The notes: a model not told the origin generated them from the sequence alone. A stretch of 64,000 nucleotides of DNA from Planctomycetota bacterium (GCA_022711465.1 JAKLEZ010000024.1:17938-81937); one strand, 5' to 3'. Positions 11,580 to 59,777 are shown, counted from the stretch's first letter. Numbers and translations: made by a program.

Positions 11580-11774
11580 GGGCGGGATCGAGTCTGGTCG
11601 GAGTTGCTCCATGGCGTTTGGTCGAGGGGCGGTGGGCATTCCGCATTCATGGTAGACGCCGAACAGGTTGCCGGTTCTGCACCGGCCGATACCGTTGATG
11701 GCGTGTCGTGGCTTGCGTGGAGGGATCACTGGCGGAGGCTGCACGGATGCTGCGGGCTCATCGGCCCGTCACGG

Positions 11775-32297: not shown

Positions 32298-33449
32298 ATG
32301 AGGCGAGAGGAAGGGTTCAATGACGTTCTGGACGTTGGCCCGGTGGCCATGCGGGTGGTTCGTCGGCTTCGCCGGCAGGTTCTGACTGGCGGTTTGAAGG
32401 CTGGCGAGGAACTGCCGTCGGTCCGTGAGCTGGCTCGGACCAGCGGGGCGGGGGTGGTGAGTGCTCACCGAGCCCTGCAGCGGATTGAAAGCGAAGGGTG
32501 GGCCAGCCGGGGCGGCGGCCGGCGGTTGCGGATCAATCACGACGCGGTTCGTCTGGCCGAGGCCCAGCTTCGCCAGGAGCCGCCGACCCGGGTTTTCTGG
32601 CTGAGTCCCTCGCGCGTGCGTCTCAGTTCGGAGATGGCGGTCAACACCATCTCGGAAGGTCTTTTTCAGGTTTTCCCGGGTTGTTCCCCTCACTACTTGT
32701 ATGTTGATCTGTCTGCGGGTTTTGGTCCGGTGGAGCAGCTGATCCGCCAGAACGCGGAGTTGCCGTGCGAGGTAGGTTATGTTCTGGCGGGGATGCCCCC
32801 GGCGTTCAAGCGGCTGTTTGCCACCTACGAGTTGCCCTGTGTGGTGCCCGGCTACGTCGAGCCGGGAGTGGGTCTGCCGTGCGTTTACGAGGACATGGTG
32901 AACGTTGGCCGGATGGCCGGCGAGCTGTTGTGCCGGAGGGGGCGGGTGGTGGCCCTCTGCCATCAGGAGCTTATTGGAGCTGAGGTCTTCCTGGTCGAAG
33001 GGGTTCGGGAGGCGGCCAGGGTCATGGGAGCTCACATTCCCAGCGCCGCCGAGTTCTACTACCACCTCATGCCCGATATGGCCGACTATGCCCGGGCGAT
33101 TGACCTGTTGCTTGATCAAAGCGACGGTCCCGTGGGCATCCTGGCGGTTCAACCGGAGTTTGCGATGCTGGCCCTGCAGGCCGCCGCCCGGCGTCGCATA
33201 CCCATCCCCGAGCGAGTGCAGGTCGTCGCGTTACATCATCATCCGATGTATTCCTTCGCCTATCCGGCGATCACCTCGATCGGGCCCTATTCGCTGGTTG
33301 AACTGGGCCGCCGATGCGCGGAGATGCTGGCCGAATCGATGGGTGGGCGGTCCAAAGCTGCTCCGCGGGAGATCATCCGGTCCACGCTGGTTGAACGAGA
33401 ATCGACGCTGCCGCGGGCCACGGGTGCCCAGCGGCCGGCGGCGGGTTAG
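32298..33449 (+). CDS. GntR-type HTH regulator fused to a periplasmic-binding-protein-like (PBP1/LacI-type) sensor domain
   Basis: N-terminal winged HTH (GLKAGEELPSVRELARTSGAGVVSAHRALQRIESEGW). The remaining ~300 aa has the alternating beta-alpha pattern of a sugar-binding fold. The true start may be Met-18 (32349). Confidence 0.7.
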   Translation: MRREEGFNDVLDVGPVAMRVVRRLRRQVLTGGLKAGEELPSVRELARTSGAGVVSAHRALQRIESEGWASRGGGRRLRINHDAVRLAEAQLRQEPPTRVFWLSPSRVRLSSEMAVNTISEGLFQVFPGCSPHYLYVDLSAGFGPVEQLIRQNAELPCEVGYVLAGMPPAFKRLFATYELPCVVPGYVEPGVGLPCVYEDMVNVGRMAGELLCRRGRVVALCHQELIGAEVFLVEGVREAARVMGAHIPSAAEFYYHLMPDMADYARAIDLLLDQSDGPVGILAVQPEFAMLALQAAARRRIPIPERVQVVALHHHPMYSFAYPAITSIGPYSLVELGRRCAEMLAESMGGRSKAAPREIIRSTLVERESTLPRATGAQRPAAG

Positions 33450-33508: not shown

Positions 33509-36500
33509 ATGAGACGATACCTTATTTCCGCGGGGGTGGTACTGGGCGCAATCCTGTGTCTTGGGTCAGCCTCGTGGGCCACGCAGATCACGGTGAACGG
33601 GGTCACTTCCCTCTTTGACGACTATGAGGCGCCCGATGTCTTGGGCTTGCCGCCGGTGGCCAATATCGGCACGTGGACGGTCCGCGGCGGGACGGTGCAG
33701 GAAGTCACTCCTCCCGGGGCTTATCAGGGCAGTCAGTTCCTCGCGATGTTCAACGCCGACAGCCCTATCCTGCACAAGTTGAACCCCGTCGGTAGCGGGA
33801 CCGGCACGGTCATCCGCTTGGACACCATGGTTTTCCTGCCCCCGGCCGCTCAGGGTCAGGAAGCCTGGTATCAGATGGTTTGGTACGACACCTCGGGTAC
33901 AACGGTGGGAGCCGACAACTCGCCCATCCACACCGCGATCATCGGTGATCAGCTCCGTTACTGCGAGGGTGGGTCTGCCTACTCGACGAGCGGCGTCCCG
34001 GTCGCCTACGGTGTCTGGCAGCACTGGGTGATTGAATACACCGTCGGCTCGGGTCAGTTCACGGCGACCGTCGACGGCGCATCCATGACCATGGGTCTGA
34101 ACGCCCGCAGCTCCGATGTGGGCATTGGCTATGTCCAGTTCTTCGCCAACAGCGCCGCGGGAAGCAACCCGATCCTCTTCGACGCCGCCGTGAGCCAGGG
34201 CACCAATGACACCTGCACCAACGCCTTTTCGCTCGGCGACGGCCTGATCGCCGGGAGCACCGCGGGGGCGACTCCCGACGGCACCGCCTCTTGCGGCAGC
34301 TCGGACAGTGGCCCGGATGTGTGGTACGTTTACACGGCCACGTGTAACGGACAACTCACCATCGACAGTTGCGGTTCCGACTTCGATACCGTGGTCTCGG
34401 TTCACGCCGACGGTTGTCCGGGCACGGCCGCCACTCAGTTGGCCGGCGGATGCAGCGACGACTGCCCGGGCACGCCCTGCGGCGGGACGGCGTCGTGCGT
34501 GACCGTCGCGGTGACCAACGGGACGCGATACCTGGTGCGTGTGGCCGGCAAGGGCGGGGCGAGCGGGGCGTTTACCCTGAATGCGAGCGTGGTCTGCGAA
34601 TCGGAATGCCCGGGTTTTCCGCAGAATTTCGATACCAATGAGGTGGGTTCGGCGGCCTGCTGGTTTGGCGGGCAGCGGTGGTTTGACCCGACTCCGGGTG
34701 CGACGGTGGCGGTCACCGACACCGATTTCGTCTCCTTTCCGCGCAGTTTGATGGTCACCGGCAGCGGTACGAACATGATGGCCTGGCGGGCGTACGAGAC
34801 GGTGTCGTCCAACGGTACCGATCCAATCAGCGTGTCCTTCGATTTCAAGGTCAACAACTACGCTGAGAACATCGCGTTCAGTCCGTTCGCCTTCAACAAG
34901 GTGTTGTGGGGCGCGGCGGGTACGCCGCACGCTGATGCATTCGGCTGGCCGGTCAACACCAACTACGAGCCCACCGGGCTCTTCAGCTACGTTGATGCGG
35001 TCGCGGGCTCGATCACCATGTTCGCGAAGGACCGAGCCGACCTCAACGGGCAGTGGATCCGCTGGGAAGGAACGCTCTATCCCGCGACCCGCAAGGCGGA
35101 CGTGGTCGTCGAAGTCATGACTGGTCCGGCGGCTGGGACCTCCGGCGGCGTCATTGGCAAGGATTTCCAGTGGGACGTGGCCAACGACTACTATGGCCAG
35201 GCGATGGACGAGATTCGTGGCTCGGTTTTCTTCACCCCGGGCGGTTCCACCTTTGGGCCGGACGATCAGGTCCTGATCGACAACTACGATGTGCGAGTCG
35301 GGCCTCCCGCGACGCCGACCCTGCCGGTGAACGACCTGTGTGCCGACGTCCTGACGATCGGCAACGGCAAGACCTACGGGCGGACGCTGGGCGCGACGCA
35401 GGACGGCGACGCGTCCTGCGGCAACACTTCGGGCAGCCCGGACGTCTGGTACCGGTACACGGCCACCTGCACCGGTGATCTGATCATCAAAGGCTGCGGC
35501 TCCGGTTTCGACGTGGTCATTTCGGTGCATTCGGACACTTGTCCGGGGACGGCCGCCAACCAGTTGGCTTCCGGCTGTGCCCAAGGCTGTGCCACCGGTT
35601 TGTGTGACCAGTTCCAGCCGTGCTTGTCCGTGCCGGTCGTCGAGTCAACGAGCTACCTGATTCGGGTGGCAGGCGTCGATGGACAGTCCGGTTTCTTCGG
35701 GCTGGATCTGTTCTGCTTCGCTCCGATTCTGAACGACACCTGCGAGTCGGCGACGACGATCACGGAGGGCACGGTGTCGGGTACCACGATGATGGCGGCG
35801 GTCGACGGTGATGCTTCGTGCGGCAGCTCGGGCAGCAGCCCGGACGTCTTCTACGCGTTCACGCCGGCAGCCACGGGCACTTACACAATCGGCGTTTGCC
35901 CGAAGAGTGCGTTCACGCCGGTCCTCTCGATCCACTCGGGCTGCCCGGCGGCCCTCGGCAACGAGTTGGCCTGCACCAGCGGCTCAGCCGGTGCTTCGCT
36001 TGTCCTGTCGCTGACCGCTTCAACCACGTACATCATCCGGGTATCCGGAGAGAGCGGCACTTCCGGCGACTTCGATCTGAGTGTGGTCGCCGGCGGCGGG
36101 CTCGCGGCATTGCCGTTGAGCCAAGGCTTTGAGAGTGACACGGTGGGTGCGGCCGCGGGCTGGGAGACCGGCTATCCGACCATCACCTCGTCGGCTTGCG
36201 GTGGCTCGACGGTTACGGTCATCGATACCGAAGCCAGTCCGAATGACGGCGGATCGAGGAGTCTGCACTGGCTTGAGCCGGCAGGGGACGGGCGCAGCGC
36301 ACTCGTCCGGCGATGGGAGCCGCTGCCCAGTGCCGCGACGGGCAAGCTGCGTGTGGCCTATGACTTCAAGATCGTGCAGCACTCGGTGAGCGGCCTGTCG
36401 TTCATCGTCTCCGGTTGGGACCCGAATGGCGCGCTCAATCTCAACCTGTTTGCCATGCGATTCGATCCTGACTCCGGCGACGGTCTCAGCATCGGGATGA

Positions 36501-37030
36501 ACTACCTGAACAACGGGAACTGGGAGAACTTCATGCCCGTTGCCGACACGGCCGAGATCATTGGCCAGTGGTTCCACTATGAGGCGATTATCGATGTCGG
36601 CGCCAGAACGGTGGACCTGACCCTTACTCGTCTGATGACGCCGGCGCCTCTGTCGGCGCACATCGTCGGCAGTTACCAGACCGCGCCCGGCGAGAATCCG
36701 CTCGATGCCGACATCGCCAACTACCATGGCATCGACATCTTCCAGTCGAGCGGTGCCGCGGTCAGCGAGGTATTGGTCGATAACGTGACCGTGGAGGTTC
36801 TCGGCGGATGCCCGCGGCCGTTTGCCGATGCCGATGGTGACAGCGACGTGGACCAGGTGGACTTTGGCATTTTGCAGGCGTGTTTCACCGGTGCCGAGGG
36901 TGGAGTTGCTGACGCGTGCAAGTGTCTGGACTGGAACAAGGACAATGCGATTGGAGGGGTCGACCTGAACAAGTTCAGCGCGTGCTTCAGCGGTCCGGCG
37001 ATCCAGGCGGACCCGTCTTGTGCAGACTGA
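33509..37030 (+). CDS. Giant secreted multidomain protein: jelly-roll-like N-domain, 3x Cys-rich PPC-like modules, 2x unnamed ~230-aa domain, C-terminal dockerin-like module
   Basis: ATG 33509 after ggagg. Signal peptide MRRYLISAGVVLGAILCLGSASWA. Internal repeats are described in the findings. C-terminal DADGDSDVDQVDFGILQACFTG...CKCLDWNKDNAIGGVDLNKFSACFSGPAIQADPSC. Confidence 0.85.
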   Translation: MRRYLISAGVVLGAILCLGSASWATQITVNGVTSLFDDYEAPDVLGLPPVANIGTWTVRGGTVQEVTPPGAYQGSQFLAMFNADSPILHKLNPVGSGTGTVIRLDTMVFLPPAAQGQEAWYQMVWYDTSGTTVGADNSPIHTAIIGDQLRYCEGGSAYSTSGVPVAYGVWQHWVIEYTVGSGQFTATVDGASMTMGLNARSSDVGIGYVQFFANSAAGSNPILFDAAVSQGTNDTCTNAFSLGDGLIAGSTAGATPDGTASCGSSDSGPDVWYVYTATCNGQLTIDSCGSDFDTVVSVHADGCPGTAATQLAGGCSDDCPGTPCGGTASCVTVAVTNGTRYLVRVAGKGGASGAFTLNASVVCESECPGFPQNFDTNEVGSAACWFGGQRWFDPTPGATVAVTDTDFVSFPRSLMVTGSGTNMMAWRAYETVSSNGTDPISVSFDFKVNNYAENIAFSPFAFNKVLWGAAGTPHADAFGWPVNTNYEPTGLFSYVDAVAGSITMFAKDRADLNGQWIRWEGTLYPATRKADVVVEVMTGPAAGTSGGVIGKDFQWDVANDYYGQAMDEIRGSVFFTPGGSTFGPDDQVLIDNYDVRVGPPATPTLPVNDLCADVLTIGNGKTYGRTLGATQDGDASCGNTSGSPDVWYRYTATCTGDLIIKGCGSGFDVVISVHSDTCPGTAANQLASGCAQGCATGLCDQFQPCLSVPVVESTSYLIRVAGVDGQSGFFGLDLFCFAPILNDTCESATTITEGTVSGTTMMAAVDGDASCGSSGSSPDVFYAFTPAATGTYTIGVCPKSAFTPVLSIHSGCPAALGNELACTSGSAGASLVLSLTASTTYIIRVSGESGTSGDFDLSVVAGGGLAALPLSQGFESDTVGAAAGWETGYPTITSSACGGSTVTVIDTEASPNDGGSRSLHWLEPAGDGRSALVRRWEPLPSAATGKLRVAYDFKIVQHSVSGLSFIVSGWDPNGALNLNLFAMRFDPDSGDGLSIGMNYLNNGNWENFMPVADTAEIIGQWFHYEAIIDVGARTVDLTLTRLMTPAPLSAHIVGSYQTAPGENPLDADIANYHGIDIFQSSGAAVSEVLVDNVTVEVLGGCPRPFADADGDSDVDQVDFGILQACFTGAEGGVADACKCLDWNKDNAIGGVDLNKFSACFSGPAIQADPSCAD
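34204..36090 (+). repeat. Three copies of a ~125-aa Cys-rich module (PPC/pre-peptidase-C-terminal-like) at protein level
   Basis: The copies start NDTCTNAFSLGDG, NDLCADVLTIGNG, NDTCESATTITEG. They share ASCGxSxSxPDVWY.YTA.C.G.L.I..CGS.FD.V.SVH...CPGTAA.QLA.GC and YL(I/V)RVAG..G.SG.F. Approximate ranges are 34204-34600, 35329-35720 and 35731-36090. Copy 1 is separated from copy 2 by one copy of the ~230-aa domain. Confidence 0.7.
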
Positions 37031-37137
37031 TCGATGGTGCCGAGCGACACCGCTTGCCGGCGCGTGGCCGGTGGAAAGACGGCTGTCGCATGTTGAGGAG
37101 GGACCGGTCGAGCCGGTCCGGAAAGCGGGAGAGAGAC

Positions 37138-37968
37138 ATGAGAGCAAGAACAACTCTGGTGTGGGTGTGCGGCGTGATGGGTGTCCTGGCTGGCGTGGCC
37201 TTCGGGCAGACCTTCTCGCAGAGCTTCGAGAGCGACGCGGTCGGTTCGGCAGCCGGCTGGAGCGGCGGGCAGCGTTGGTTCGATCCGACGCCGGGCGCGG
37301 TCGCGGCGGTGACCAGCACGGATTCCGTATCCCCGTCGAACAGTCTCAGTGTGACGGATCCGAACGGGACCGGTTTCTTCGTCTGGCGAGACTATGGTGG
37401 GCTCTCCTCGGACGGTGTCCAGGACATCACCGTGTCGTTCGATATGAAGGTGAGCAACTACGGCGACAATATCGCCGTCAGCCCGTTCGCGTACAACTCC
37501 TCGGTCTGGGGCGGTGATACGGGGGGTTCCGGCGGCTTCGGCTGGCCGGTCAACACCAACCTGACCGTCGAGAACATCTTCAGCTACTATGACGAGAACG
37601 CCGGTTCGATCACGATGCTGGACAGCACGGTCGTCGGCGACCTCCGAGGACAGTGGATTCACTGGTCCGGCACGGTGCATCCGGTCGCTCGCACGGCCGA
37701 TGTCGCCGTGACCCTGCTGACCGGTCCCTCGGCCGGTGCGACCGGCAGCGTCACGGGTGCGCAATTCCAGTACGGCGTGGCTTCCGACTATTACGGTGGA
37801 GCCATGGACGCTCTGCGCGGCCTGGTGATCTTCAACCCTGCGTCTGCTTCATTCAGCGGTGGCGAGCTCCTGATCGACAATCTGAGAGTGGTTGTGCCCG
37901 AGCCCGCTTCACTGGCTCTGCTCGGTCTGGGTGGCCTTGCTTTGATCGGCCGGCGGCGGAGCCGGTGA
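37138..37968 (+). CDS. PEP-CTERM-anchored protein consisting of a single copy of the unnamed ~230-aa domain
   Basis: ATG 37138. Signal peptide MRARTTLVWVCGVMGVLAGVAFG. The domain runs QSFESDAVGSAAGWSGGQRWFDPTPG...LLIDNLRVVV. C-terminal VPEPASLALLGLGGLALIGRRRSR is a textbook PEP-CTERM sorting signal. Confidence 0.8.
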   Translation: MRARTTLVWVCGVMGVLAGVAFGQTFSQSFESDAVGSAAGWSGGQRWFDPTPGAVAAVTSTDSVSPSNSLSVTDPNGTGFFVWRDYGGLSSDGVQDITVSFDMKVSNYGDNIAVSPFAYNSSVWGGDTGGSGGFGWPVNTNLTVENIFSYYDENAGSITMLDSTVVGDLRGQWIHWSGTVHPVARTADVAVTLLTGPSAGATGSVTGAQFQYGVASDYYGGAMDALRGLVIFNPASASFSGGELLIDNLRVVVPEPASLALLGLGGLALIGRRRSR

Positions 37969-37995
37969 GGACTCTCGGTTTTCTCTTGCAGGGGG

Positions 37996-40900
37996 GTGTT
38001 CGTGCAGCACATGGGCGACAGGGCGGTTGCATGGCTCGGTCTGGCTCTGGGCTTGTTGTTGATCTCGTCGCCGGATGAAGCCCGCGCTGCCCGGCAGCTT
38101 GGTGACCTGAGCGGGTCGTGGCAGTTGTTCGCCGACGATTACCTCGTTGCCCGTAAGCAGAACGTCACCCGCTCGTATCACGCTTTCCAGAAGCTCCCAG
38201 GGCCGGTCATGGTGGCCGACCGGCCCTGGGAGTCGAATAACGTGTACCTTTACGGTACCGTGCTTCCTGCCGAGAGCGGCTCCGGCTACCGCATGTGGTA
38301 CCACTGCTACGATTACGCCGCCAGCACGTACCGGATGCTGTACGCGGTGAGCTCAGACGGCCTGGCGTGGCAGAAGCCGGACCTCAGCCTGGTCAGCTAC
38401 AACGGTTCCACCGCCAACAACATCTTCCTTCGCCGCACGACCGAGGACCACACGCCCCAGATCATCCACACGCCCTGGGAGTCCGATTCCGCGCGCCGCT
38501 ACAAGATGGTCAACTTCGACTACGGCCGCACGCCCCCGGATCACACGGTCAGCGGCTACTGGGGGGCCTGGTCGTCGGACGGGATCCACTTCACCGCGGC
38601 GCCGGCCAACCCGGTACTGCCGGATCCCGGCGACGTCGGCAACTTTGTCTGGGATCCGCTGACCCGGCGATACGTGGGGTTCCCCAAGAAGTTCGCGGAT
38701 GTGCGTGGTTTTCGGCGACGGTGTGTCGGCCGCTCCGCGACCACCGTGTTCGAGCAATGGCCGGTCTCACAGATGTGCCTGGTGCCCGACGAATACGACG
38801 ATCGTTGGGTGACCGAAGGGGGTCAGCACACGGATTTCTACGGACTCAGCGGTTTTGTGTACGAGTCGATGTACATCGGTTTCCTGTGGGTTTTCCGCAT
38901 CGCCGACGGCGACAACGACGGCCCGATCTTCGTTGAGCTGGTCACCAGTCACGACGGCGTGACCTGGCTTCGTCAGGAGCAGCCGCGGACGCCGATTCTC
39001 CCGCTCGGTCCGGAGGGTGCCTGGGACAGCGGTATGATCTTCACGCCCAATCACCCGCTGGTCGAGAACGGCACGATCAAGCTTTACTACGGGGGATGGA
39101 ACATCACTCACAACGCCGGCGGCGGAGGGGGGGCGATCGGCCTGGCCACTCTCCGAAAGGACGGCTTCGCTTCGCTTGATGCAGACAGCGCGATCGGCAC
39201 CGTCACGACGTGCGAGCTGAGGAATGCTTCCGGCCAGCTCCACGTCAACTGCAACGCCTCTGGAGGTTGGCTTGCAGTCGAAGTGCTCGATCAGAACAAT
39301 CAGGTGATTCCGGGCTACAACCAGGCGAGCTGTAACCTCATTCAGACCGACAGCGTCGATCGAACCGTGACCTGGGGTCTGGTGAGCACACTGCCGGCCG
39401 TTGAACCGATTCGTCTGCGGTTCGTCTTCAAGAACGCATCGCTGTATTCGTTCCGAGCCGGTGATGCGATCGAGGCCGCTGATGCCGGACCGGGGGCCAT
39501 CTACACCTTCGAGGGTGACAGCGGGACCACCGCCGCCGACAAGCTCACCACCGACGGCGTACAGGCTGCCGAGTTCCAAGGCTCGGTCTTGGTGGTTGCC
39601 GATCGAGCCCGATCGGCGTTCGGCAACTCATCAGCGGCCTTTGCCGGCGACGGATCAGCGGTGGACACAATCGAGATCGAGCGCACATTCGACCTCGGTC
39701 GGCAGTTCACGTTGGCCGCCATGGTCAAACCAGCCGACAATCGCCTGACCCGGTTGTTCAGCTCCTATCTTGGCAGTGGCTCCGCCTCGTCGAACGATCT
39801 GATTTTCGATTTCGACCCGACGGGGACAGCCATCACGGGTTTGCGCTGCATAGTCCAGGGAATGTCGATCCAATCCCAGCAATGGGCTTTCGCTGACGGC
39901 GCCTATCACCATCTGGCCATGACCTACAATGACGGAGCCGTGAGTCTGTATCTCGACGGTGATTCGGTAGGCGCCGGCACGGTGCCGGCGGGGGCGGTGT
40001 GGCTGACGCGGAATCTCCGCTTCGGGCAGGACACCGAGGGTGCTCCGATCTTGAACCAGGCTTTCGACAGCGATGCTTTGGGATCGGCTGCCGGCTGGCA
40101 AAGCGTGGCCAAGTGGTTCGGAGGGGCGGCCGGCACGGTCGCGGTCGCGGATTCCGACGCCGTGTCCGCGCCGAACGGCTTGAACTGGCAGGGCGACGGT
40201 TCGGACTGCCAACTGATTCGTCCGTGGGGCTTCGCCTCGGACGGGGCCAGTCCCGTCACCGTGTCATTCGACTTCAAGGCGGTCAGTCGCGGCAACTGGG
40301 TGGGCATGAGCCCGTTCGTCTATCGAGCCGAGTGGGGCGGCACGGTGAACGGGGCGTACGGCTGGCCTGTGCTGCTCTACCTGTACTTGGCGGACACCTC
40401 GACGCTTGCGGCCGGGTTCAATTACTACGAGGACGGCACCGGCTGGGTCAGCGTGTTCAAAGCTCCTGCCGACCAGCTGGTTGGCAGCTGGTTCCGGATC
40501 AGCTCGACGCTGTACCCAAGCAGCCAGACGGTAGGCGTGACCGTAACGCAACTCACCGGCCTGGGCGCGGGTGCGAGCGGATGTTTGGCCGGCCGGCATT
40601 TCCAGTACGGCTACGTCACCGAACCCGGCTGGTACACGCCCGCTCTGGACGATTTGCGGGGCAGCCAGTTCTATGCGTGGGGCTTCCAGCCCGGCGAGAG
40701 CATTCTGCTCGACAACTTCAGCGTACGGGTCGGCGGCAGCGGATCGAGCCAGGGTCAGAGCCAGATCCAGTCCACTCAGTTTCGCGGCAACGCCGACGAC
40801 ATCGTTGTCATCAAGCGAGTTCTTTCGGCGAGCGAGATTGCGGCCGCGGCCACGCTAGGTATCGCCCGGCTGTATGATCTCTCGAACCTCCCGGATTTCG

Positions 40901-41100
40901 ACGGCGATGGCGATGTTGACCAGTCCGACTTCGGTACGTTCCAAACCTGTATGACCGGCGCGGACACTGCGCAGACCGACCTGGCCTGCGCCCCGGCGCG
41001 TCTGGATGACGATGCCGACGTGGACGCGGCCGATCTGGCGATCTTTCTGGCGTGCATGAGCGGGGACGGAATCCCCGCCGATCCAAACTGCGATCGATGA
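37996..41100 (+). CDS. Secreted glycoside-hydrolase-like protein: five-bladed-propeller-like N-domain + beta-sandwich + LamG-like domain interrupted by the ~230-aa domain + dockerin-like C-terminus
   Basis: 1034 aa (GTG 37996 or ATG 38011). Signal peptide AVAWLGLALGLLLISSPDEARA. Propeller-like block (WQLFADDYLV, DRPWESNNVYLYGTVL, YRMWYH, SSDGLAWQKPDL, SSDGIHF, TSHDGVTW, KLYYGG, LRKDGFASLDA). LamG-like (FTLAAMVKP, IFDFDP, YHHLAMTYNDGAVSLYLDG). C-terminal DFDGDGDVDQSDFGTFQTCMTG...DADVDAADLAIFLACMSGDGIPADPNC. Confidence 0.8.
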   Translation: MFVQHMGDRAVAWLGLALGLLLISSPDEARAARQLGDLSGSWQLFADDYLVARKQNVTRSYHAFQKLPGPVMVADRPWESNNVYLYGTVLPAESGSGYRMWYHCYDYAASTYRMLYAVSSDGLAWQKPDLSLVSYNGSTANNIFLRRTTEDHTPQIIHTPWESDSARRYKMVNFDYGRTPPDHTVSGYWGAWSSDGIHFTAAPANPVLPDPGDVGNFVWDPLTRRYVGFPKKFADVRGFRRRCVGRSATTVFEQWPVSQMCLVPDEYDDRWVTEGGQHTDFYGLSGFVYESMYIGFLWVFRIADGDNDGPIFVELVTSHDGVTWLRQEQPRTPILPLGPEGAWDSGMIFTPNHPLVENGTIKLYYGGWNITHNAGGGGGAIGLATLRKDGFASLDADSAIGTVTTCELRNASGQLHVNCNASGGWLAVEVLDQNNQVIPGYNQASCNLIQTDSVDRTVTWGLVSTLPAVEPIRLRFVFKNASLYSFRAGDAIEAADAGPGAIYTFEGDSGTTAADKLTTDGVQAAEFQGSVLVVADRARSAFGNSSAAFAGDGSAVDTIEIERTFDLGRQFTLAAMVKPADNRLTRLFSSYLGSGSASSNDLIFDFDPTGTAITGLRCIVQGMSIQSQQWAFADGAYHHLAMTYNDGAVSLYLDGDSVGAGTVPAGAVWLTRNLRFGQDTEGAPILNQAFDSDALGSAAGWQSVAKWFGGAAGTVAVADSDAVSAPNGLNWQGDGSDCQLIRPWGFASDGASPVTVSFDFKAVSRGNWVGMSPFVYRAEWGGTVNGAYGWPVLLYLYLADTSTLAAGFNYYEDGTGWVSVFKAPADQLVGSWFRISSTLYPSSQTVGVTVTQLTGLGAGASGCLAGRHFQYGYVTEPGWYTPALDDLRGSQFYAWGFQPGESILLDNFSVRVGGSGSSQGQSQIQSTQFRGNADDIVVIKRVLSASEIAAAATLGIARLYDLSNLPDFDGDGDVDQSDFGTFQTCMTGADTAQTDLACAPARLDDDADVDAADLAIFLACMSGDGIPADPNCDR

Positions 41101-41113
41101 GGTGATTCAAGGG

Positions 41114-44100
41114 ATGAATCCGACACGTATTCGGCGAATCGGGCTCGGTTTCGCTGCGGGGCTGCTTCTCAGCGCGCATGGCGTGTTCGCGGAGCTGGTC
41201 TCCCGCTCATTGAACGACCTGAGCGGTCCGTGGCAGTTGTTCATCGACGACTGGCTTGTTGCCGAGAAGTCGGGTCTTCAGAAGACTTGGCATGCCTTCG
41301 AGAAGTACGCGGCCAACCCGGTCCTGGCCGCCGATCGACCGTGGGAGGGCTCGGTCGTCTATCTCTACGGGACGGTGCTGCCTGCGGAGAAGGGCCCCGG
41401 CTACCGCATGTGGTATCATTCCTGGGCGGAGGGGGAATACCGCAAGCTGTATGCGACCAGCTCCGACGGTTTGAAATGGGAGAAGCCCGAGCTTGGCCTG
41501 GTGGACTACAAGGGTTCGGCCAAGAACAACCTGTTCCTGAAGCGTTCCCACGAGGATCACTCGCCGCAGGTCATTCACACGCCGGCCGACCCCGACCCGC
41601 TGCGGCAGTACAAGCTCGTCACCTACGAGTACGGCCGCACGCCGCCGAAGTACACGGTCAGCGGGTACCTCGGAGCCTGCTCCCCCGACGGCATTCGCTG
41701 GACGGATGTGCCGCGTTATCCCGTCCTGCGCGATCCCGGCGACGTGGGCAACTTCACCTGGGATCCGTTTAACGGGCGTTACATTGGGTACCCGAAGAAG
41801 TTCACCGAAGTCCGCGGTTACCGCCGGCGATGCGTGGGTTTCTCCGAGACGAACGTGTTCGACTCCTGGCCGCTTGCCCGGCTTGTGCTCGTGCCCGATG
41901 AGTTTGACGATCGCTGGGTGAAGAGCCCCGGGCAACACACTGACTTCTATGGCCTGAGTGCGTTTGCCTACGAGTCCATGTACCTCGGTTTCCTTTGGGT
42001 TTTTCGGATCACCGACGGCGATAACGATGGTCCGATCTTCGTGGAGATGGTCACCAGCCGCGACGGCGTGAACTGGACCCGCCAGGACGAACCGCGGACG
42101 CCGGTCTTGCCGACCGGACCCAAAGGGGCCTGGGATTGCGGCATGGTCTTCACACCCAACCACCCGCTGGTTGAGGGTGACAAGGTCAGGCTCTACTATG
42201 GCGGCTTCGACGTCACCCACGGCGCCGACGGCAGAGGAGCGATCGGCCTGGCGGTGCTCCGCAAGGACGGCTTCGCGTCGCTCGACGCCGGCGCGAACGC
42301 CGGTACGGTGACAACGCACCCGCTGGTCGGCGTACGGGGTCCCCTGCGCGTGAACTACCGTGCCGTGCGCGGCTCCCTCAAGGTCGAGATTGTCGACGGC
42401 CAGGGTCGGCCGTTGGCCGGCTACTCTCGCCAGGAGTGCGATTCGTTGACCACTGACAGTGTCGACCAGGAGGTCACGTGGAAGGGTTCGAACCACCTGC
42501 CGGATGGGCAGGGTGCGATACAACTGCGATTCGTGCTTCAGGATGCGTCGCTGTACTCCTTCTGCGCCGGAGAGAACCTCCAGGTTGCTCGGCCCGACCA
42601 TGGTATTCTGTACACTTTCGAGGGCGACAAGGGACAGGCCGTCAAGGATCATCTGCGTGCCGATGGATCGCAGGACGGCCGGGTTCGCGGCCTTGCCGGA
42701 GTGGACAGCGGCCCGACGCAAGCTGCCTTTGGTGAAGCCGGCTTTCGTATTCCCGAGACGGTCACCGAACTGAGCACCATCGAACTGCCCGGCACCAACC
42801 AGTTGGGTACGTCCTTCACGCTGGCCGCGATGGTCAAGCCGGCGGCTCCCGGTTTCGCGAGGTTGTTCAGCAACTATCGAGGCAGCGGGCCGCCGTGGAC
42901 CAGCGAACTCATTTTTGACATCGACCCTAGCGGCAAGACCATCGCCGGCCTGCGGGGGGTGATCAATGGCGGGGAGGTGCAGTCTGGAACGGGCTCGTTT
43001 GACGCCGGCCGCTATCACCATGTTGCACTGACCTATTCGGACGGCGAGACCGTTCTGTATCTCGACGGCGGGGAGGTCGGGCGTGGCGAAGTACCCGCCG
43101 GTCCGGTTCTGCTGGGGACTAACATGCGGATCGGGGAGGACCTGGGTGGAGTGGTCAACGAGCAATTCACCGGTTCGGTCGATGATGTGCTCGTCCTGCG
43201 GCGAGCGCTGACCTCAAGCGAAATCGGCACCCTGGCCAAGAACGGTGCACGGGCTTTCGTGGATGCAGGTCGGAGCGGCACCTGGCCGGTGCGCCCCGCC
43301 CGTGCCGCGATACCGATGGAGGCAAACGCCTTACCCCGCACCTGCAGCATCGGATCGCGTCTGGAGCTGTTCGTGGACCGTTTTCTGATCGAGAGGCTGG
43401 AAGGCACTGAGCTCCGCCTTCACCATCCTCAGTCCGCCGGCGTCGTGTTCCATTTCGACAGGCCTTGGGAGGGCATTGTCAGCGGGTATGTGACGGTCAT
43501 CAAGGACGCCGACCTGTACCGCATGTACTACCGTGGACGGCCCACGACCAGCCAGGCCGATGCCAGCTCCGAGGCCCAGGAGGTTGCCTGCTATGCCGAG
43601 AGCAGGGACGGTGTCACCTGGACGCGGCCGGATCTGGGACTGCTCGAGGTCGCCGGCACACGCCACAATAATGTCATTCTCACCGAGCCGAAGACCGTGA
43701 CCCACAACTTCTGCCCGTTCATTGACGCTCGCCCGGGCGTGCCCGAGGCCGAACGATTCAAGGCGGTCGGCGGCACAGGTTCCGGAGGTTTGTTCGGTTT
43801 CGTCTCCGGCGACGGCATCCACTGGAAGCCGGTGGCGCCGAAGGCACTCATCACCCGCGGCGAGTTCGATTCCCAGAACGTGGCCTTCTGGTCGCCTTCC
43901 GAGCAGCTCTACCTGTGCTATTACCGCACCTGGCGACGTGAGCGGCGCTGGATCAGTCGCACGACCTCCAAGGATTTTCTCCACTGGACCGCTCCGGTGG
44001 ACATGGACTATGGCGACACGCCGCCCGAGCACCTCTACACCAATCAAACGCATCCGTATTTTCGGGCTCCGCACCTCTATGTCTCGGTGGCCGCTCGCTT

Positions 44101-44725
44101 CAATCCTGGCCGCCGGGCGCTGACCGACGAGCAGGTCAAGAGCCTCGACTTGGAGAGCAAGGGCAACTATGACGGCCTCAAGGAAGACACGTCTGATGCC
44201 GTCCTGCTCACCAGCCGCGGTGGCAAGTGGTACGACCGGACTTTCCTGGAGAGTTTCATTCGTCCCGGCCGCGACCTGCGCAACTGGGTGGCGCGGGCCA
44301 ACTACCCGGCTCTTGGCGTTGTTCCGACCGGGCCGGGCGAGATGTCGATCTACATTCAGCGACACTACGGCCAGCCGTCGGCCTGCATCGAACGCATGAC
44401 CCTGCGCACCGATGGCTTTGCCTCGGTCAGTGCTTCATACCGCGGGGGTGAGATGGTGACCAAGCCTCTGACGTTCACCGGCAAGGAACTGATCGTGAAC
44501 GTGTCCACCTCCGCGGTCGGTGGTGTTCGGGTAGAAATCCAGAGCGAGGCCGGCAAGGCGATGCCTGGATTCTCCCTGACCGACGCCGACGAGGTCATCG
44601 GCGATGACCTGGAGCGTGTCATGACCTGGAAAGGCAAGTCGGATGTCAGCATGCTCGCTGGCGAGCCGGTGCGATTGCGGTTCGTGATGAAGGACGCGGA
44701 TCTGTATTCACTGCGATTCCGGTAG
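41114..44725 (+). CDS. Secreted glycoside-hydrolase-like tandem paralog: propeller-like domain + beta-sandwich + intact LamG-like domain + second propeller-like domain + beta-sandwich; no dockerin
   Basis: 1207-aa ORF (GTG 41102 or ATG 41114, 13 nt after the upstream stop). The N-terminal 650 aa is collinear with 37996-41100 (WQLFIDDWLV, DRPWEGSVVYLYGTVL, YRMWYH, SSDGLKWEKPEL...). The second module has RPWEGIVSGYVTVIKDADLYRMYYRG, ESRDGVTWTRPDLGL, SGDGIHWKP, SKDFLHW, LRTDGFASV. Confidence 0.8.
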   Translation: MNPTRIRRIGLGFAAGLLLSAHGVFAELVSRSLNDLSGPWQLFIDDWLVAEKSGLQKTWHAFEKYAANPVLAADRPWEGSVVYLYGTVLPAEKGPGYRMWYHSWAEGEYRKLYATSSDGLKWEKPELGLVDYKGSAKNNLFLKRSHEDHSPQVIHTPADPDPLRQYKLVTYEYGRTPPKYTVSGYLGACSPDGIRWTDVPRYPVLRDPGDVGNFTWDPFNGRYIGYPKKFTEVRGYRRRCVGFSETNVFDSWPLARLVLVPDEFDDRWVKSPGQHTDFYGLSAFAYESMYLGFLWVFRITDGDNDGPIFVEMVTSRDGVNWTRQDEPRTPVLPTGPKGAWDCGMVFTPNHPLVEGDKVRLYYGGFDVTHGADGRGAIGLAVLRKDGFASLDAGANAGTVTTHPLVGVRGPLRVNYRAVRGSLKVEIVDGQGRPLAGYSRQECDSLTTDSVDQEVTWKGSNHLPDGQGAIQLRFVLQDASLYSFCAGENLQVARPDHGILYTFEGDKGQAVKDHLRADGSQDGRVRGLAGVDSGPTQAAFGEAGFRIPETVTELSTIELPGTNQLGTSFTLAAMVKPAAPGFARLFSNYRGSGPPWTSELIFDIDPSGKTIAGLRGVINGGEVQSGTGSFDAGRYHHVALTYSDGETVLYLDGGEVGRGEVPAGPVLLGTNMRIGEDLGGVVNEQFTGSVDDVLVLRRALTSSEIGTLAKNGARAFVDAGRSGTWPVRPARAAIPMEANALPRTCSIGSRLELFVDRFLIERLEGTELRLHHPQSAGVVFHFDRPWEGIVSGYVTVIKDADLYRMYYRGRPTTSQADASSEAQEVACYAESRDGVTWTRPDLGLLEVAGTRHNNVILTEPKTVTHNFCPFIDARPGVPEAERFKAVGGTGSGGLFGFVSGDGIHWKPVAPKALITRGEFDSQNVAFWSPSEQLYLCYYRTWRRERRWISRTTSKDFLHWTAPVDMDYGDTPPEHLYTNQTHPYFRAPHLYVSVAARFNPGRRALTDEQVKSLDLESKGNYDGLKEDTSDAVLLTSRGGKWYDRTFLESFIRPGRDLRNWVARANYPALGVVPTGPGEMSIYIQRHYGQPSACIERMTLRTDGFASVSASYRGGEMVTKPLTFTGKELIVNVSTSAVGGVRVEIQSEAGKAMPGFSLTDADEVIGDDLERVMTWKGKSDVSMLAGEPVRLRFVMKDADLYSLRFR

Positions 44726-47401
44726 TCCGCTCGCCGCGGGAGCAGTCTCGCCTCCGTCCGCCGCATACTCTTGCGTCACCCACTGGATGTCCAGGTCCAG
44801 GGTCGCCTTCGCGTCGTGGAAGGCGGTCGGGAACTCCTGACCCAGGCGTGTGGACAGATCGCGCAAGTATTGAAGGTATGCCCCGGCGACAGGCAAGTTC
44901 GTGGCCAGGCGTGTGTACTTCTGCCGAACTGGGTTGTGGCTCGTGCTGAAAGTGCCGCACCTGAATCCGACCATACCCGGGTAGGCCTCGACGAGGTCCT
45001 TGAGGACCATTCGCCCGGCCGGCGTCGCGGCCAGGAGGGCGATGACTTCACCAACAGACCGGTAGGGGTCATATGCCGTGGGGTTGAAGGCGTAGTCAGC
45101 ACACGTGAGCATCGGAATGCGATTCGCCTGATCCTGGGGGCAGAGGGGGTTGCTCATGTATCCGTCAAGAACCTGGCAGAGTCCGGGGTCGCGTCCGATC
45201 ACCGGGCCGAGGTGAAGTGTCTGGTTTCCATCGTTGACCGGGTAGTTGTCCCAGAGAATCAGCCGATGTCGGACCACCGCCTTGTAGCTGTCGGCTGCGG
45301 TCTTGGTGAGTTTCGGCGTCACCACGGCGTCTCCGGTCCAGAACAGGTACACGTCAGTGCCGAGGTTGGTGCCCAACTCGGTCAGGTAGTCGTGGCCGAC
45401 CGAGCCGTCGCCCCAGTAGTAGGTTGGACAGAAGACCATCTGGGCATCGGGATCGGCGAGTCGCAGGCGTGCAAGCAGCTTGTTGACCAGTGCCGCGTGC
45501 TGGGCCCCGACGATGGGTACTCCGCCGATGTCGTCGAGGGAAACGCAGAACCAGCGCACGCCGACCGACTGGGCCCAGGCGTAATGCGACCAGAGTTGCT
45601 CGAAATCGGAATCGCTGGTCGGATCCAGCGGGCGTGACGAGCCCAACTGGGGGTGGATGCAGAAACAGAACTCGATACTGTTCTGTCGGCATGCGGAGAT
45701 CACCTGCTGGTAGGCGGTCTTCGCGGATGGAGGCAGCGGCAGCCACCAATTGTTGCCGCCCTGCACGGCGAAGATGGACAGATAGCAGTTCATCAGGAAG
45801 TTCATTTTCCCCTGGGCCAGATAAGGCACGGCCCTCAGGTACTGATCCGCCGTCCAGTTCCAGCCCTTGATTCCGCGAATGGCGAAGCCCGGATCGGCTC
45901 CCGGAGGCAGAGGCTGAGGGAAGATTCCGGGGGTTTCAGGGAGCTGTACGAAGTGGTTGAAGAAATCGCCGATCGGCGAGTCAGGCTGCTCGCATCTCGG
46001 ATCCGCGGGCACGGTCGAGCCACTGACGCAAACCTGGAAGAGGGCGAAGTCCAGCAGGTCGATCGAGTTGTCTGCGTTTCGATCGAAGCAGGCGCACGTG
46101 TTCGGCAGAGGCGTCGTCGAGGAGGCCGGCCCGAGGCACGTCTGGAAGATCCCGAAATCCTCCTGATCGACGTCGCTGTCGCCATCGCTGTCCGCATACG
46201 GCGTATGGCAGGTCAGCGTCGTGTATCTGAACCACGCTGCTTCGTCGCCCCCATCCGGGTAATAGTCGCCGGAGTCCTCGCCGACGAAGATCACCCGAAA
46301 CTGCCGGGCCCACCTCATGGCCGACCAGGGCAGGGCGATCTCGAGATCCAGGCCATCGGGCGAGACGGCATAGCTGTACGGATGAGTGGTGCCCAGATGG
46401 CAGCCTTCCGCGGCCCAGGTGTTGAACTCCTTCACGCCGGCCAGGTTATACTCTGCCCCGAGGGAGAAGACGCGAGCGCTTGCGGAGATCAGGCCGGTGG
46501 ATGAAGTGCAGTCTGTATCGCAAAGTACCCAGTAGCCGGGAGTGGCGTCGAAGGAGGGTGACGGAGGTGTTCGTTGAAGCCGGAAGTACAAGGTGAGGTT
46601 GTCGTGGGCGATCCAGGCCTGTACGTAGTCCTGCCCGCCGGACACGTCGCCGGCCGCATCGGCCGGGAAAGGCGTAACCCCCGCCCAGTCGGCCAGCTGG
46701 CCATCGAGTCTGATGGTGTCGTGGGAGAGAGGGTTTGAGCCGACGGCGACTTCTCCGGTCTGCGGGGGGGGTACGTCCCGAAGGGTGTACAGGAAGTAGT
46801 CCGCCTGAGTCCCGCCGTCCGGGTCATAGTCGCCGGGGCTTTCGGCCACCAGGATCAGGTTGAAGGCGTTCGGATTGCCCAGCGTCGCCAGTGGCACGGA
46901 GAGCTCCATCGTGGTCCCTGATTCGACGCGCTGATACTCCAACGGGCCCAGAAAACCGCCGGTCGGCGCCCACCGATTGAGGGCCAGGGCCCCGCCGAAG
47001 TTGAACTCTCCCCCGATGCTGAACACTCGGCCGCTGGCGGTCTTGAGTCCGGTTGATCGCTTCAGGTCTGTGTCCAGGATGATCCAATAACCGTAACCGC
47101 CGGTGGTTCCGTTGGTACCGAGAGCCGAGGAGAAACTCACGCTGCCGGGGGCCCGCTTGGCAAGGATGAACAGTGTCGTTTCGCTGTGGGCAACCCGGAC
47201 TTCGACCCAGTCCTGCGTGCCCGCGGGAACATCACCAGCCGGATCGGGTGGAAAAGCGCTTACGCTTATCCAATCGTCGAACCTCCCGTCAATAGCTATG
47301 GCCTGTTCCGCAACGGGATTGCTCCGGCGGGCGATTTCTCCCGCCATGGTATTACCTTCGAGGAGGATCACAAGCGTCAGCAGTCTGCTCATTGGACACA
47401 T
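44708..47401 (-). CDS. Secreted GH84-like beta-N-acetylglucosaminidase with 2x ~190-aa repeat and an internal dockerin-like module
   Basis: The ORF track begins at TTG 47446; ATG 47401 or 47392 is more likely. The C-terminal half carries GH84 hallmarks (FCFCIHP, WFCVSLDDIGG with DD pair, FCPTYYWG, LFWTGD, LILWDNYPVNDG). The middle has YADSDGDSDVDQEDFGIFQTC...CACFDRNADNSIDLLDFALFQVCVSGSTVPADPRC. Confidence 0.8.
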   Translation of the reverse strand: MCPMSRLLTLVILLEGNTMAGEIARRSNPVAEQAIAIDGRFDDWISVSAFPPDPAGDVPAGTQDWVEVRVAHSETTLFILAKRAPGSVSFSSALGTNGTTGGYGYWIILDTDLKRSTGLKTASGRVFSIGGEFNFGGALALNRWAPTGGFLGPLEYQRVESGTTMELSVPLATLGNPNAFNLILVAESPGDYDPDGGTQADYFLYTLRDVPPPQTGEVAVGSNPLSHDTIRLDGQLADWAGVTPFPADAAGDVSGGQDYVQAWIAHDNLTLYFRLQRTPPSPSFDATPGYWVLCDTDCTSSTGLISASARVFSLGAEYNLAGVKEFNTWAAEGCHLGTTHPYSYAVSPDGLDLEIALPWSAMRWARQFRVIFVGEDSGDYYPDGGDEAAWFRYTTLTCHTPYADSDGDSDVDQEDFGIFQTCLGPASSTTPLPNTCACFDRNADNSIDLLDFALFQVCVSGSTVPADPRCEQPDSPIGDFFNHFVQLPETPGIFPQPLPPGADPGFAIRGIKGWNWTADQYLRAVPYLAQGKMNFLMNCYLSIFAVQGGNNWWLPLPPSAKTAYQQVISACRQNSIEFCFCIHPQLGSSRPLDPTSDSDFEQLWSHYAWAQSVGVRWFCVSLDDIGGVPIVGAQHAALVNKLLARLRLADPDAQMVFCPTYYWGDGSVGHDYLTELGTNLGTDVYLFWTGDAVVTPKLTKTAADSYKAVVRHRLILWDNYPVNDGNQTLHLGPVIGRDPGLCQVLDGYMSNPLCPQDQANRIPMLTCADYAFNPTAYDPYRSVGEVIALLAATPAGRMVLKDLVEAYPGMVGFRCGTFSTSHNPVRQKYTRLATNLPVAGAYLQYLRDLSTRLGQEFPTAFHDAKATLDLDIQWVTQEYAADGGETAPAASGLPESQ

Positions 47402-47490
47402 CGCAGTACTCGCCAAGACTGGAGAGCGGGCACGTCCCGCCTCCAAGGATGTACGCGCATACAGAGACTTCGGGTGGCCGGCATCCCGGC

Positions 47491-50247: not shown

Positions 50248-50381
50248 GATTGAATTCCTTTCATATGGGCAGTTCCTCATACTTCCTCGTGGCCATGCCT
50301 GGTGTTCTCCGGAACCGGCGTTCAAGGCAGGTTCCTGGTTGACGGGCCGAGGATCCGGGGGCGTGGGGTGATAAGACCGCC

Positions 50382-51725
50382 TCAGGTTCTCCCGGTCACG
50401 CAGCCCTGCTCATGAATAGCGCCTCCGCACGAGTTCCACAGGCTCAGCACCTGGTCTCTGATGAGCGATGTGGTCTGGGGACTGACCCGCCACAGGCCGA
50501 TGTAGCGGTGAGCCTCCTCCACCTCGTATCCTCCCAGCGGGAATGACTCGGGCGTGGGGACATACCCGATGTAGCCGTGGCAGTAGCCGGCCACACAGAC
50601 CGGTTCGGCCTTCAGGCAGGCAGCCAGGTCGCGGCCGGACTCGTAGAATACCTCCCCCGGCAAGGCCACGATGGCCCCGTCGCCCACCCGTAGAATCGAG
50701 ATACGAACCGGGAGAGGTGGAAGTTGCCCATTCGAGGAGAGGACCGCCTCCAGCTCGGCGAGCCATTCTCGCCAGGCCCTCCGCACCTTCTCGACGACCA
50801 CGGGGTTGTCCCGCTCGCTGTCCCGGACTGTCTTGTCAGCGCGACCGAGCTCGGCCTTGATCTGCTGAATGGGTGGCATCCTGTCGTAATGCAAGCTGAA
50901 CCGGTGCGACTGCACCGCCAGCGTGTCGCGGTGGGATTGTCGGGAAGCTCGAAGGCCCCGGAGGACGGCCTCGGCGAGCAGCTGCCCGGTTGCACGCGCG
51001 GCCTCGGGACCCCCGAAAGCCAGTTCCGGTGAGAGATCGCCGCAGCAGCCGTTCAGGTAGATGCAGGCGTGTCCTTGGGCCGTCAGGGCCTCGGCCGCGT
51101 ACCCCCAGAAATCGGCGCTGATGAGGGTGCTGTCGCCGCCCAGGCAGTAAGGATGGCACGCATGGTGGAAGAGCAGAATGGAGCGGTTGACGCCGCGGAG
51201 GCTCAGCACGCGAACGGCGGTCTCCGTGGGTCCGGTCGGGTTCCGTCCCAGGATGACGCTGAGGCCTTCGGGGCCCAAGGTCTCCTGACGCCGGTTGTGC
51301 GCGAGCTTGACCGACGCACTGCCCCAGGATGCCTGAACAGGCTGGAGATCCGCGAGAGCTCCCTGAGCCGCAAGCATGGCTGCCCGCTCCAGTCGGGCGA
51401 GATAGGGGGCGTCCTCGTCGCCGATCCCCCGCAGCCGGGCAGTCATGGGCCCGGAATGGGTATGGGTAGAGGCAAGGACGACCTGATCAGATGGAATATC
51501 CAGAAGGCTGCCGAGCTTCGCCACCAGCCGGTCGGCAAGAGCGGGCGAGAGGGCCAGCAGATCGAAACTGACGAGGGCTGCCCGGGTCGGCTCGTCATCG
51601 AGGACCAGGGCTCGGGCGCTCAGTGGAGTGTCGATACCCGTGCTCGCGGAGGTGCGAGCGATGAAGCCGTTGAGAACCGCGCCTGCGGGGGGCGTGATAT
51701 CGATCGAGGCAAACCCGGCGAGCAT
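50382..51725 (-). CDS. Neutral/alkaline ceramidase-like hydrolase family protein (no signal peptide seen)
   Basis: 447 aa. N-terminal GFASIDITPPAGAVLNGF...GIDTPLSARALVLDD...VSFDLL...VVLASTHTHSGP matches the ceramidase_alk N-terminal signature. Confidence 0.55.
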   Translation of the reverse strand: MLAGFASIDITPPAGAVLNGFIARTSASTGIDTPLSARALVLDDEPTRAALVSFDLLALSPALADRLVAKLGSLLDIPSDQVVLASTHTHSGPMTARLRGIGDEDAPYLARLERAAMLAAQGALADLQPVQASWGSASVKLAHNRRQETLGPEGLSVILGRNPTGPTETAVRVLSLRGVNRSILLFHHACHPYCLGGDSTLISADFWGYAAEALTAQGHACIYLNGCCGDLSPELAFGGPEAARATGQLLAEAVLRGLRASRQSHRDTLAVQSHRFSLHYDRMPPIQQIKAELGRADKTVRDSERDNPVVVEKVRRAWREWLAELEAVLSSNGQLPPLPVRISILRVGDGAIVALPGEVFYESGRDLAACLKAEPVCVAGYCHGYIGYVPTPESFPLGGYEVEEAHRYIGLWRVSPQTTSLIRDQVLSLWNSCGGAIHEQGCVTGRT

Positions 51726-56790: not shown

Positions 56791-56841
56791 GTGCAATCCT
56801 CCTCAATGGCCAATTGTGACGGACAGACGCTATCCGATACG

Positions 56842-59322: not shown

Positions 59323-59777
59323 TCCACCTCTGGTGTCCTGGTGGTGCTCTGGACCTGGCGTACTTGGGGCCGGCCGCGAGGTGGTCGAGTGGTGACCGGT
59401 CTTGTCCTCGGGTCGGCGGGGCGGACCGGCGCTTGGGTCACAGGGGCGTTCACCTTGTCACATGCCTGGCTCGGGTCAGTTCGACCTTCGGTTTCCTGGA
59501 GAGGAGGCATCCGGTCTCCGACGTGGCCGCGGCAGCCAGTTGCGATGGGCCGTGTTTCGGCCCGCCGTGTCGGGGTGGCGGCCCCTGAAGTGTGGCACCG
59601 AGGTGCATTGGACTCGCGATGTCGGTAGGCTGGTGACCTGGGACGGGGGGAGGTCCGTCTGCCGGGGGAGGTGCCACCTCGGGTGGCGACTCCGGCTGGG
59701 AGGGACGGTGGGTGAGGAGACGCCTCGCGTGAGGTGCCCGCCGGATCACTCCGTCCCTCGTGGGAACGGCGCAGGTC

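Follow-up and report, generated by a model that had tools for sequence, protein, structure and literature searches.

In a 64,000-nt stretch of DNA from a Planctomycetota bacterium (GCA_022711465.1, JAKLEZ010000024.1:17938-81937; hereafter the window, with positions counted from its first letter), three adjacent genes, here called P1, P2 and P3, encode four copies of a single domain of approximately 227 amino acids (aa). This domain constitutes a real, unnamed and very narrowly distributed, lineage-restricted family of a very common fold. Copies A and B belong to the multi-module protein P1, copy C makes up the mature part of the PEP-CTERM protein P2, and copy D lies within a LamG domain of P3. 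On balance, we favour with moderate confidence the view that the domain is a non-catalytic carbohydrate-binding module.

Four homologous copies in three adjacent genes

An original prediction, made from the nucleotide sequence alone, had described a recurrent domain with four copies in these genes. In full-length BLASTP comparisons, copies A and C are 53% identical (E value 8e-76), and copy D shares 37% identity with both A (E 2e-39) and C (E 2e-38). Copy B represents the most divergent subtype, with 25-28% identity to A, C and D (E 2e-9 to 7e-13). These similarities are far above chance and mark the four copies as homologous. When the 64-kb window was scanned in six frames with the family profile, exactly copies A to D and no further copy were recovered, which together with the pairwise E values of 2e-9 to 8e-76 establishes that the four predicted copies exist. 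All of them lie in the predicted reading frames. Their limits had been placed 3 to 9 bases off, and copy A deviates from the consensus motif that had been quoted for the family (QNFDTNEVGSAACW).

The N-terminal approximately 200 aa of P1 had been suggested as a fifth, remote copy. We aligned this region with four homologues and compared the resulting profile by hhalign; the profile-profile probability of 0.55% (E 0.11) led us to drop the region from the family, although it may have a jelly-roll fold all the same. Long antisense open reading frames (ORFs) over the region, e.g. 33566-35584 on the minus strand, were disregarded because the plus-strand products have homologues, recognisable domains and conserved synteny, and because the G+C content of the window is 63-66%.

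An unnamed and rare family

Pfam searches at E<=10 returned nothing for any of the four copies, nor over the domain in 16 diverse family members; this includes Lectin_legB and Laminin_G_3 (PF13385), neither of which had a sequence match. NCBIfam models matched P2 in its PEP-CTERM tail and left the globular part unmatched: the hit to NF038120 (PEP_CTERM_QFxxD) reached 27.2 bits against a cut-off of 80 and covered profile positions 181-214 only, i.e. the tail. The best result of a sequence-profile search of the PDB with the domain had an E value of 0.22, which is noise. Remote homology to the neighbouring LamG domains was considered and rejected, the hhalign profile-profile probability between the domain and the LamG of the P3/P4 family (P4 being the next gene downstream) amounting to 0.3%. 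Thus, no well-characterised sequence family was found over the domain in Pfam, NCBIfam or PDB profile searches, and the suggestion that the family is unnamed holds.

The family is also rare. A word-index protein search with P2 identified 16 proteins, and HMMER, run exhaustively with the family profile over 1.84 billion cluster representatives, gave 21 matches at E<=1e-3, every one of which, where it could be placed, came from uncultured Planctomycetota. The last two of these, P0033 and P0034 (E 1e-6 and 4e-4), are repetitive in sequence and seem to be false positives. Scanning one genome per species for 185,579 species revealed the domain in two uncultured Planctomycetales metagenome-assembled genomes (MAGs). 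A near-identical protein, cluster member MBP7936155.1, is labelled 'PEP-CTERM sorting domain-containing protein [Phycisphaerae bacterium]' at NCBI.

A predicted concanavalin A-like jelly-roll

An AlphaFold2 model of copy C, computed from a 14-sequence alignment, is an all-beta sandwich of about 14 strands (pLDDT, the predicted local distance difference test, 86.7; predicted template modelling score, pTM, 0.88). Foldseek comparison of this model with the PDB gave 187 matches at E<=1e-3, led by a domain of the phage esterase vb_24B_21 (6yp6) and by BT_1020 (5mqr), followed by dozens of legume lectins. The Foldseek probability was 1.0, with template modelling (TM) scores of 0.4-0.57 and sequence identities of 7-15%. 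Matches in BFVD, a set of predicted viral structures, comprised tail-fibre and tail-associated phage proteins, F5/8-type-C proteins, many uncharacterised phage proteins and, at ranks 24 and 27, 'Alginate lyase 2 domain' proteins; they identify a generic jelly-roll only. The domain is accordingly predicted to adopt a concanavalin A/legume-lectin-type jelly-roll and to belong, at the level of fold, to the concanavalin A-like lectin/glucanase superfamily, in agreement with the concanavalin-like jelly-roll that had been guessed from its sequence pattern.

Across 41 domain copies the conserved residues are Q2, F4, G10, A13, W15, R58, S65, D76, K78, Y124, W147, D162, Q185, D221 and N222. The acidic motif of the first strand and the D-N pair of the last strand are presumably similar to the structural Ca2+ sites that many carbohydrate-binding modules (CBMs) with a jelly-roll fold possess. 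Neither Glu nor His reaches 80% conservation at any position of the 41 copies, and these contain neither a conserved Glu pair nor the Glu-x-Asp-x-x-Glu signature of glycoside hydrolase family 16 (GH16) nor the Arg/Gln/His/Tyr catalytic signature of polysaccharide lyase family 7 (PL7), whose members need a conserved His. These findings speak against an enzyme of the GH16 or PL7 type.

Architecture of the P1-P4 cassette

P1 to P4 are four co-directional, closely packed genes located 3' of a GntR/Peripla_BP_3 regulator (Table 1). P1 consists of a signal peptide, a beta-rich N-terminal domain, a GBD module, copy A, two further GBD modules, copy B and a dockerin-like tail; no catalytic domain was recognised in it. 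P2 combines a signal peptide, copy C and a PEP-CTERM tail, an architecture shared by 16 homologues. Its tail, which carries the sole PEP-CTERM motif in the window, passes both curated cut-offs for exosortase substrates, PF07589 and TIGR02595, so that the stand-alone copy is a PEP-CTERM protein as predicted. The description of P2 as flanked by dockerin-bearing genes was likewise apt, since both P1 and P3 end in dockerin-like modules.

Table 1. Coordinates of the cassette, its domains and other features of the window
Feature	Position	Strand	Evidence or remark
BNR_2 sialidase-like protein	13643-14767	+	
GntR-family regulator with periplasmic-binding-protein-like (sugar-sensor type) domain	32298-33449	+	PF00392 GntR, PF13377 Peripla_BP_3; directly upstream of cassette
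P1, 1173 aa, secreted	33509-37030	+	Orthologues P0018, P0017
P1 beta-rich N-terminal domain	33581-34186	+	
P1 Cys-rich GBD modules	34205-34600, 35330-35719, 35732-36097	+	PF23759 GBD_T9SS_assoc x3, E 1.2e-18
Copy A	34619-35299	+	Internal in P1; family-profile match, independent E value 1.6e-101
Copy B	36119-36799	+	P1, directly before dockerin-like tail; family-profile match, independent E value 1.7e-61
Dockerin-like module, P1 C-terminus	36815-37024	+	PF00404 Dockerin_1 18.1 bits (cut-off 22.9); family hidden Markov model (HMM) E 2.8e-33
P2, 276 aa: signal peptide, copy C, PEP-CTERM tail	37138-37968	+	Translation; signal peptide 37138-37206
Copy C	37216-37896	+	Entire mature part of P2
PEP-CTERM sorting signal of P2 (VPEPASLALLGLGGLALIGRRRSR)	37894-37965	+	PF07589 27.4 bits (cut-off 20.7); TIGR02595 25.3 bits (cut-off 16)
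P3, 1029 aa	38011-41100	+	Gene start agrees with public gene calls
P3 five-bladed-propeller + sandwich module, ~490 aa	about 38083-39561	+	
P3 LamG N-part	39616-40053	+	
Copy D	40054-40731	+	Nested within LamG domain of P3
P3 G/S/Q linker, 14 residues	40732-40773	+	
P3 LamG last strand	40774-40878	+	
Dockerin-like module, P3 C-terminus	40891-41094	+	PF00404 17 bits, below cut-off; family HMM E 7.6e-29
P4, P3 paralogue without the domain and without dockerin-like tail	41114-44725	+	56% identity to P3 over 680 aa
GH84 N-acetylglucosaminidase-like protein, 912 aa	44708-47446	-	
Dockerin-like module	45986-46207	-	Internal, upstream of GH84 NAGidase domain in the 912-aa protein (44708-47446); protein without the lectin-fold domain
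Neutral-ceramidase-like protein	50382-51725	-	
Dockerin-like module	54217-54441	-	C-terminus of an 861-aa protein (54211-56796) with no Pfam match; protein without the lectin-fold domain

In P3 a signal peptide and a propeller + sandwich module of ~490 aa are followed by the N-part of LamG, copy D, a linker, the last LamG strand and the dockerin-like tail. The paralogue P4 contains the propeller module (41192-42670), an uninterrupted LamG and a second, remote propeller module (about 43250-44722; 25% identity, E 1.5e-25). Residues 14-690 of P3 align to 15-689 of P4, and residues 924-961 of P3 to 684-721 of P4. Once copy D is excised, the LamG of P3 is contiguous with that of P4 (42% identity, E 3e-51). 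Concordantly, the Laminin_G_3 match of P3 in Pfam (E 4.9e-13) stops at profile position 128 of 151, whereas that of P4 is complete (positions 7-150 of 151). Copy D and its 14-residue linker sit between the penultimate and the last LamG strands (39616-40878). The alignments show the copy to be inserted into LamG, as a domain-in-domain insertion, and not attached behind it. P0022 and P0013 have a copy nested in this way as well. Hundreds of homologues of about 750 aa have the plain, uninterrupted propeller + LamG architecture; the insertion of copy D is therefore a lineage-specific elaboration.

The N-terminal module of P3 and P4 is predicted to fold into a five-bladed propeller plus sandwich (pLDDT 90.7). 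Its best fold matches are the N-acetylgalactosamine (GalNAc) deacetylase of F. plautii (6n1a), BT_0996 (GH137), and members of GH130, GH32 and GH43, and its sequence profile retrieves 6n1a from the PDB at E 3e-6. By these matches the host proteins would be carbohydrate-active by fold. More than 680 matches with 53-67% identity were found in Hydrogenedentes, Planctomycetota and Chitinophagaceae, and neither Pfam nor NCBIfam has a model for this highly conserved ~490-aa family, which probably represents an uncharacterised family of carbohydrate-active enzymes. Being widespread and lacking a model in both databases, it is of wider practical interest than the domain itself.

Conservation of the cassette and exchange of modules

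The order regulator-P1-P2-P3-P4, with a domain copy at the same four positions, is kept in other MAGs, at the loci L001 and L002, and in both the sugar-type GntR regulator occupies the same position. The P3 region of L001 has been called as several shorter genes. Locus L003 contains the P1-P2 part only, where its contig ends. P0014 and P0016, two divergent stand-alone members in otherwise unrelated neighbourhoods, are likewise directly preceded by a gene for a LacI/GntR + Peripla_BP regulator.

A neighbour-joining tree of the 41 copies resolves four subtypes, A to D. P1 of the L001/L003 lineage carries an A-like copy, in place of a B-like one, at its C-terminal position, and the B clade includes a stand-alone PEP-CTERM protein, P0025. 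An A-like copy at the B position and a stand-alone B-type protein imply that modules have been swapped. Every complete family member has a PEP-CTERM or dockerin-like tail at its C-terminus. In locus L090 (8001-9118) the gene of P0014 is split by a frameshift, which may be an assembly error or mark a pseudogene; reading through it yields a signal peptide, the domain, a dockerin and a PEP-CTERM signal in one protein. This dockerin is canonical and Cys-free (GDVNGDGVVDIFDINLV... twice).

The P1-like protein P0024 (1339 aa) contains the beta-rich domain type of the P1 N-terminus twice. Each of the two seems to be nested in a Cys-rich GBD_T9SS_assoc-type module (...DTVLSLYPGD[domain]PGSCPGTAANELAC...), which would add a second type of domain-in-domain insertion to this protein family.

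A proposed carbohydrate-binding role

We consider it somewhat probable that the domain founds a family of non-catalytic carbohydrate-binding modules, CBM- or lectin-like, which a cell-anchored protein, a non-catalytic multi-module protein and an enzyme of one sugar-regulated operon have in common. A role as lectin for the shared substrate, as the original prediction had offered, is plausible: it fits the predicted fold, the absence of a conserved catalytic signature, the fusion of the domain to glycoside-hydrolase-like proteins and the presence of upstream regulators of the sugar type. In such a scheme the sugar-sensing GntR-type regulator would turn on the four secreted proteins. P2 would display one copy at the cell envelope via its PEP-CTERM/exosortase anchor, P1 would act as a non-catalytic multi-module protein with two copies, and P3 as a propeller-fold carbohydrate-active enzyme with one copy grafted into its LamG domain. 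If all copies bound the same or a related glycan, substrate, enzyme and cell would be kept together, while dockerin-like or PEP-CTERM tails would hold the proteins at the surface. We infer that the domain binds a glycan and what kind of ligand this might be, that the cassette proteins are localised at the surface and that the dockerin-like tails serve in anchoring. Retention of polysaccharide at the cell surface by exosortase-dependent proteins has a precedent in Nostoc punctiforme, where a crtB mutant loses cell-associated HPS (PMC12188702).

Several observations weigh against this proposal. Copy B is only ~27% identical to A, C and D, and the four copies therefore need not share a ligand. 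The fold-level matches are loose in both TM score and sequence identity, and the jelly-roll also serves protein-protein contacts and catalysis. No exosortase (EpsH/Xrt) was found among the window ORFs scanned. Finally, the enzyme class of P3 and P4 is itself suggested by nothing other than their predicted fold.

The position of the domain may instead point to an envelope-proximal structural or spacer module, or to a binder of something other than the operon's glycan substrate (the cell's own exopolysaccharide, a lipid or a protein). A location next to the C-terminal anchor would mirror a role in presenting the protein or attaching it to the cell envelope, and in every complete member a PEP-CTERM or dockerin-like tail follows immediately on the domain or, where the domain is nested, lies close by. 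The exchange of paralogue types at the same position between lineages fits this as well, and PEP-CTERM systems are tied to exopolysaccharide production (PMC1569441, PMC12188702). Nevertheless, copy A lies inside P1, well away from the tail; polar and aromatic residues of the surface type are strongly conserved across very divergent subtypes, which suggests a specific ligand; and the sugar-type regulators fit substrate use. We regard an envelope module unrelated to the operon's substrate as unlikely.

Should carbohydrate binding be confirmed, the domain would be a new family of carbohydrate-binding modules that could be entered in Pfam or, as a CBM, in CAZy. It would come from uncultured Planctomycetota, about whose surface machinery for glycan degradation little is understood. 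In compact form, the operon exemplifies one candidate binding module common to cell-anchored, non-catalytic multi-module and enzyme proteins, and also domain-in-domain insertion and the placement of a PEP-CTERM or dockerin-like tail right behind one and the same domain. Since only a handful of MAGs have the family, the reach of these findings is limited.

Dockerin-like modules and the question of surface assembly

The original prediction had also raised the possibility that the domain is a cohesin analog, the binding partner that the dockerin-like modules lack. Four such modules had been recognised in the window, and all of them were found by the family HMM (Table 1). They are Cys-rich double EF-hands with a duplicated D-x-D-x-D..VD..DF motif and extra conserved Cys residues; against PF00404 the tails score 17-20 bits (E 0.0008-0.007), under the gathering cut-off of 22.9. 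A word-index protein search with the 72-aa dockerin-like tail produced no candidates. A genome scan with one narrow pattern, derived from a 4-sequence alignment, led to at least 114 confirmed dockerin-like modules in many Phycisphaerae and Planctomycetales MAGs, with several genomes carrying 6-13 of them each. The domain was absent from all 80 dockerin-like loci fetched (563 kb), even at E<=10. Moreover, no cohesin matched the domain in Pfam at E<=10, and none appeared among the top 50 Foldseek matches. A module present in at least 114 places faces 21 representatives of the domain, which therefore cannot be its general partner, and the cohesin-analog idea finds no support. A lineage-specific interaction between the domain and the dockerin-like module is possible.

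We hold it to be quite unlikely that the domain mediates protein-protein assembly, with anchored P2 recruiting P1 and P3, either by contact with their dockerin-like tails or by lectin-style sheet-to-sheet pairing of domain copies, into a small 'planctosome'-like complex at the surface. Legume lectins, to which the best fold matches belong, are obligate oligomers. The same domain occurs on one anchored and two secreted, dockerin-like-tailed proteins of one operon, no recognisable cohesin was seen among the window ORFs scanned, and L090 encodes domain, dockerin and PEP-CTERM signal in one reading-frame-corrected protein. A cohesin/dockerin 'planctosome' has been hypothesised in other Planctomycetes (PMC6461901). 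Besides the distribution given above, this explanation is opposed by the two further window proteins that bear a dockerin-like module without the domain, and by copy B, which lies three residues from the dockerin-like tail of its own protein. Dockerin-like modules without cohesins are, moreover, reportedly common in bacteria (Peer et al., cited in PMC6461901). That the domain is a surface-assembly module and no lectin, P2 capturing P1 and P3 by tails or copy pairing as a minimal exosortase-anchored, cohesin-free 'planctosome', is in our view highly doubtful; if true, it would give the orphan dockerin-like modules of the lineage a partner.

A catalytic jelly-roll, i.e. a divergent GH16-, GH7-, PL7- or alginate-lyase-2-like enzyme with P2 as its cell-bound form, is very improbable: the fold class includes such enzymes, the BFVD matches extend to alginate lyase 2 proteins and the domain is also found as a stand-alone mature protein, but the catalytic Glu and His residues are not conserved, lectins and not enzymes are the best structural matches, and the domain behaves like an accessory module in being duplicated, nested and appended.

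Other genes of the window

Outside the cassette, the window encodes sialidase-like, GH84-like and neutral-ceramidase-like proteins. Their presence within 64 kb, together with the GalNAc-deacetylase-like propellers of P3 and P4, hints at the use of amino-sugar glycoconjugates. In neither L001 nor L002 do these three genes share the synteny of the cassette. Long ORFs without a Pfam match at E<=1e-3 were noted at 47491-50325 (minus strand) and, on the plus strand, at 5272-7185, 10297-11655 and 59760-61001; the 944-aa ORF among those without such a match adjoins the GH84 gene.

Comparison with known systems

Cellulosome cohesins, beta-sandwiches that may be borne by a cell-anchored protein and recruit enzymes with dockerins, are comparable in arrangement. 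In contrast to them, the domain has no Pfam cohesin match and no cohesin in its top 50 Foldseek matches, and its distribution does not track the dockerin-like module. The small NCBIfam PEP-CTERM families (NF038120 PEP_CTERM_QFxxD, THxN, FxDxF) have the same build as P2, namely a signal peptide, one domain of ~200-250 aa and a PEP-CTERM tail, but P2 matches them in the tail only, and its globular part has no detectable relationship to theirs. Laminin_G_3/LamG of P3 and P4 shares with the domain the broad fold class and the kind of host proteins, although the domain is ~70 residues longer, is inserted into LamG and has neither a Pfam match nor more than the marginal hhalign probability reported above.

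The closest structural counterparts by Foldseek are the vb_24B_21 esterase domain (6yp6) and BT_1020 (5mqr), with E values of 5e-7 and 2e-6 and TM scores up to 0.57. Both resemble the domain as accessory beta-sandwiches joined to a carbohydrate-active enzyme, and both differ in lacking a detectable sequence relationship to it and in that the domain also occurs stand-alone and cell-anchored, or nested. The domain further differs from the legume lectins, e.g. peanut lectin (2pel) and the Erythrina lectins, in being bacterial and fused to PEP-CTERM or dockerin-like tails, with only 7-15% identity and no Pfam lectin match at E<=10. Nonetheless, dozens of these lectins match it at a Foldseek E of about 2e-6, and the predicted structure shares with them both the two-sheet jelly-roll and the length of ~230 aa.

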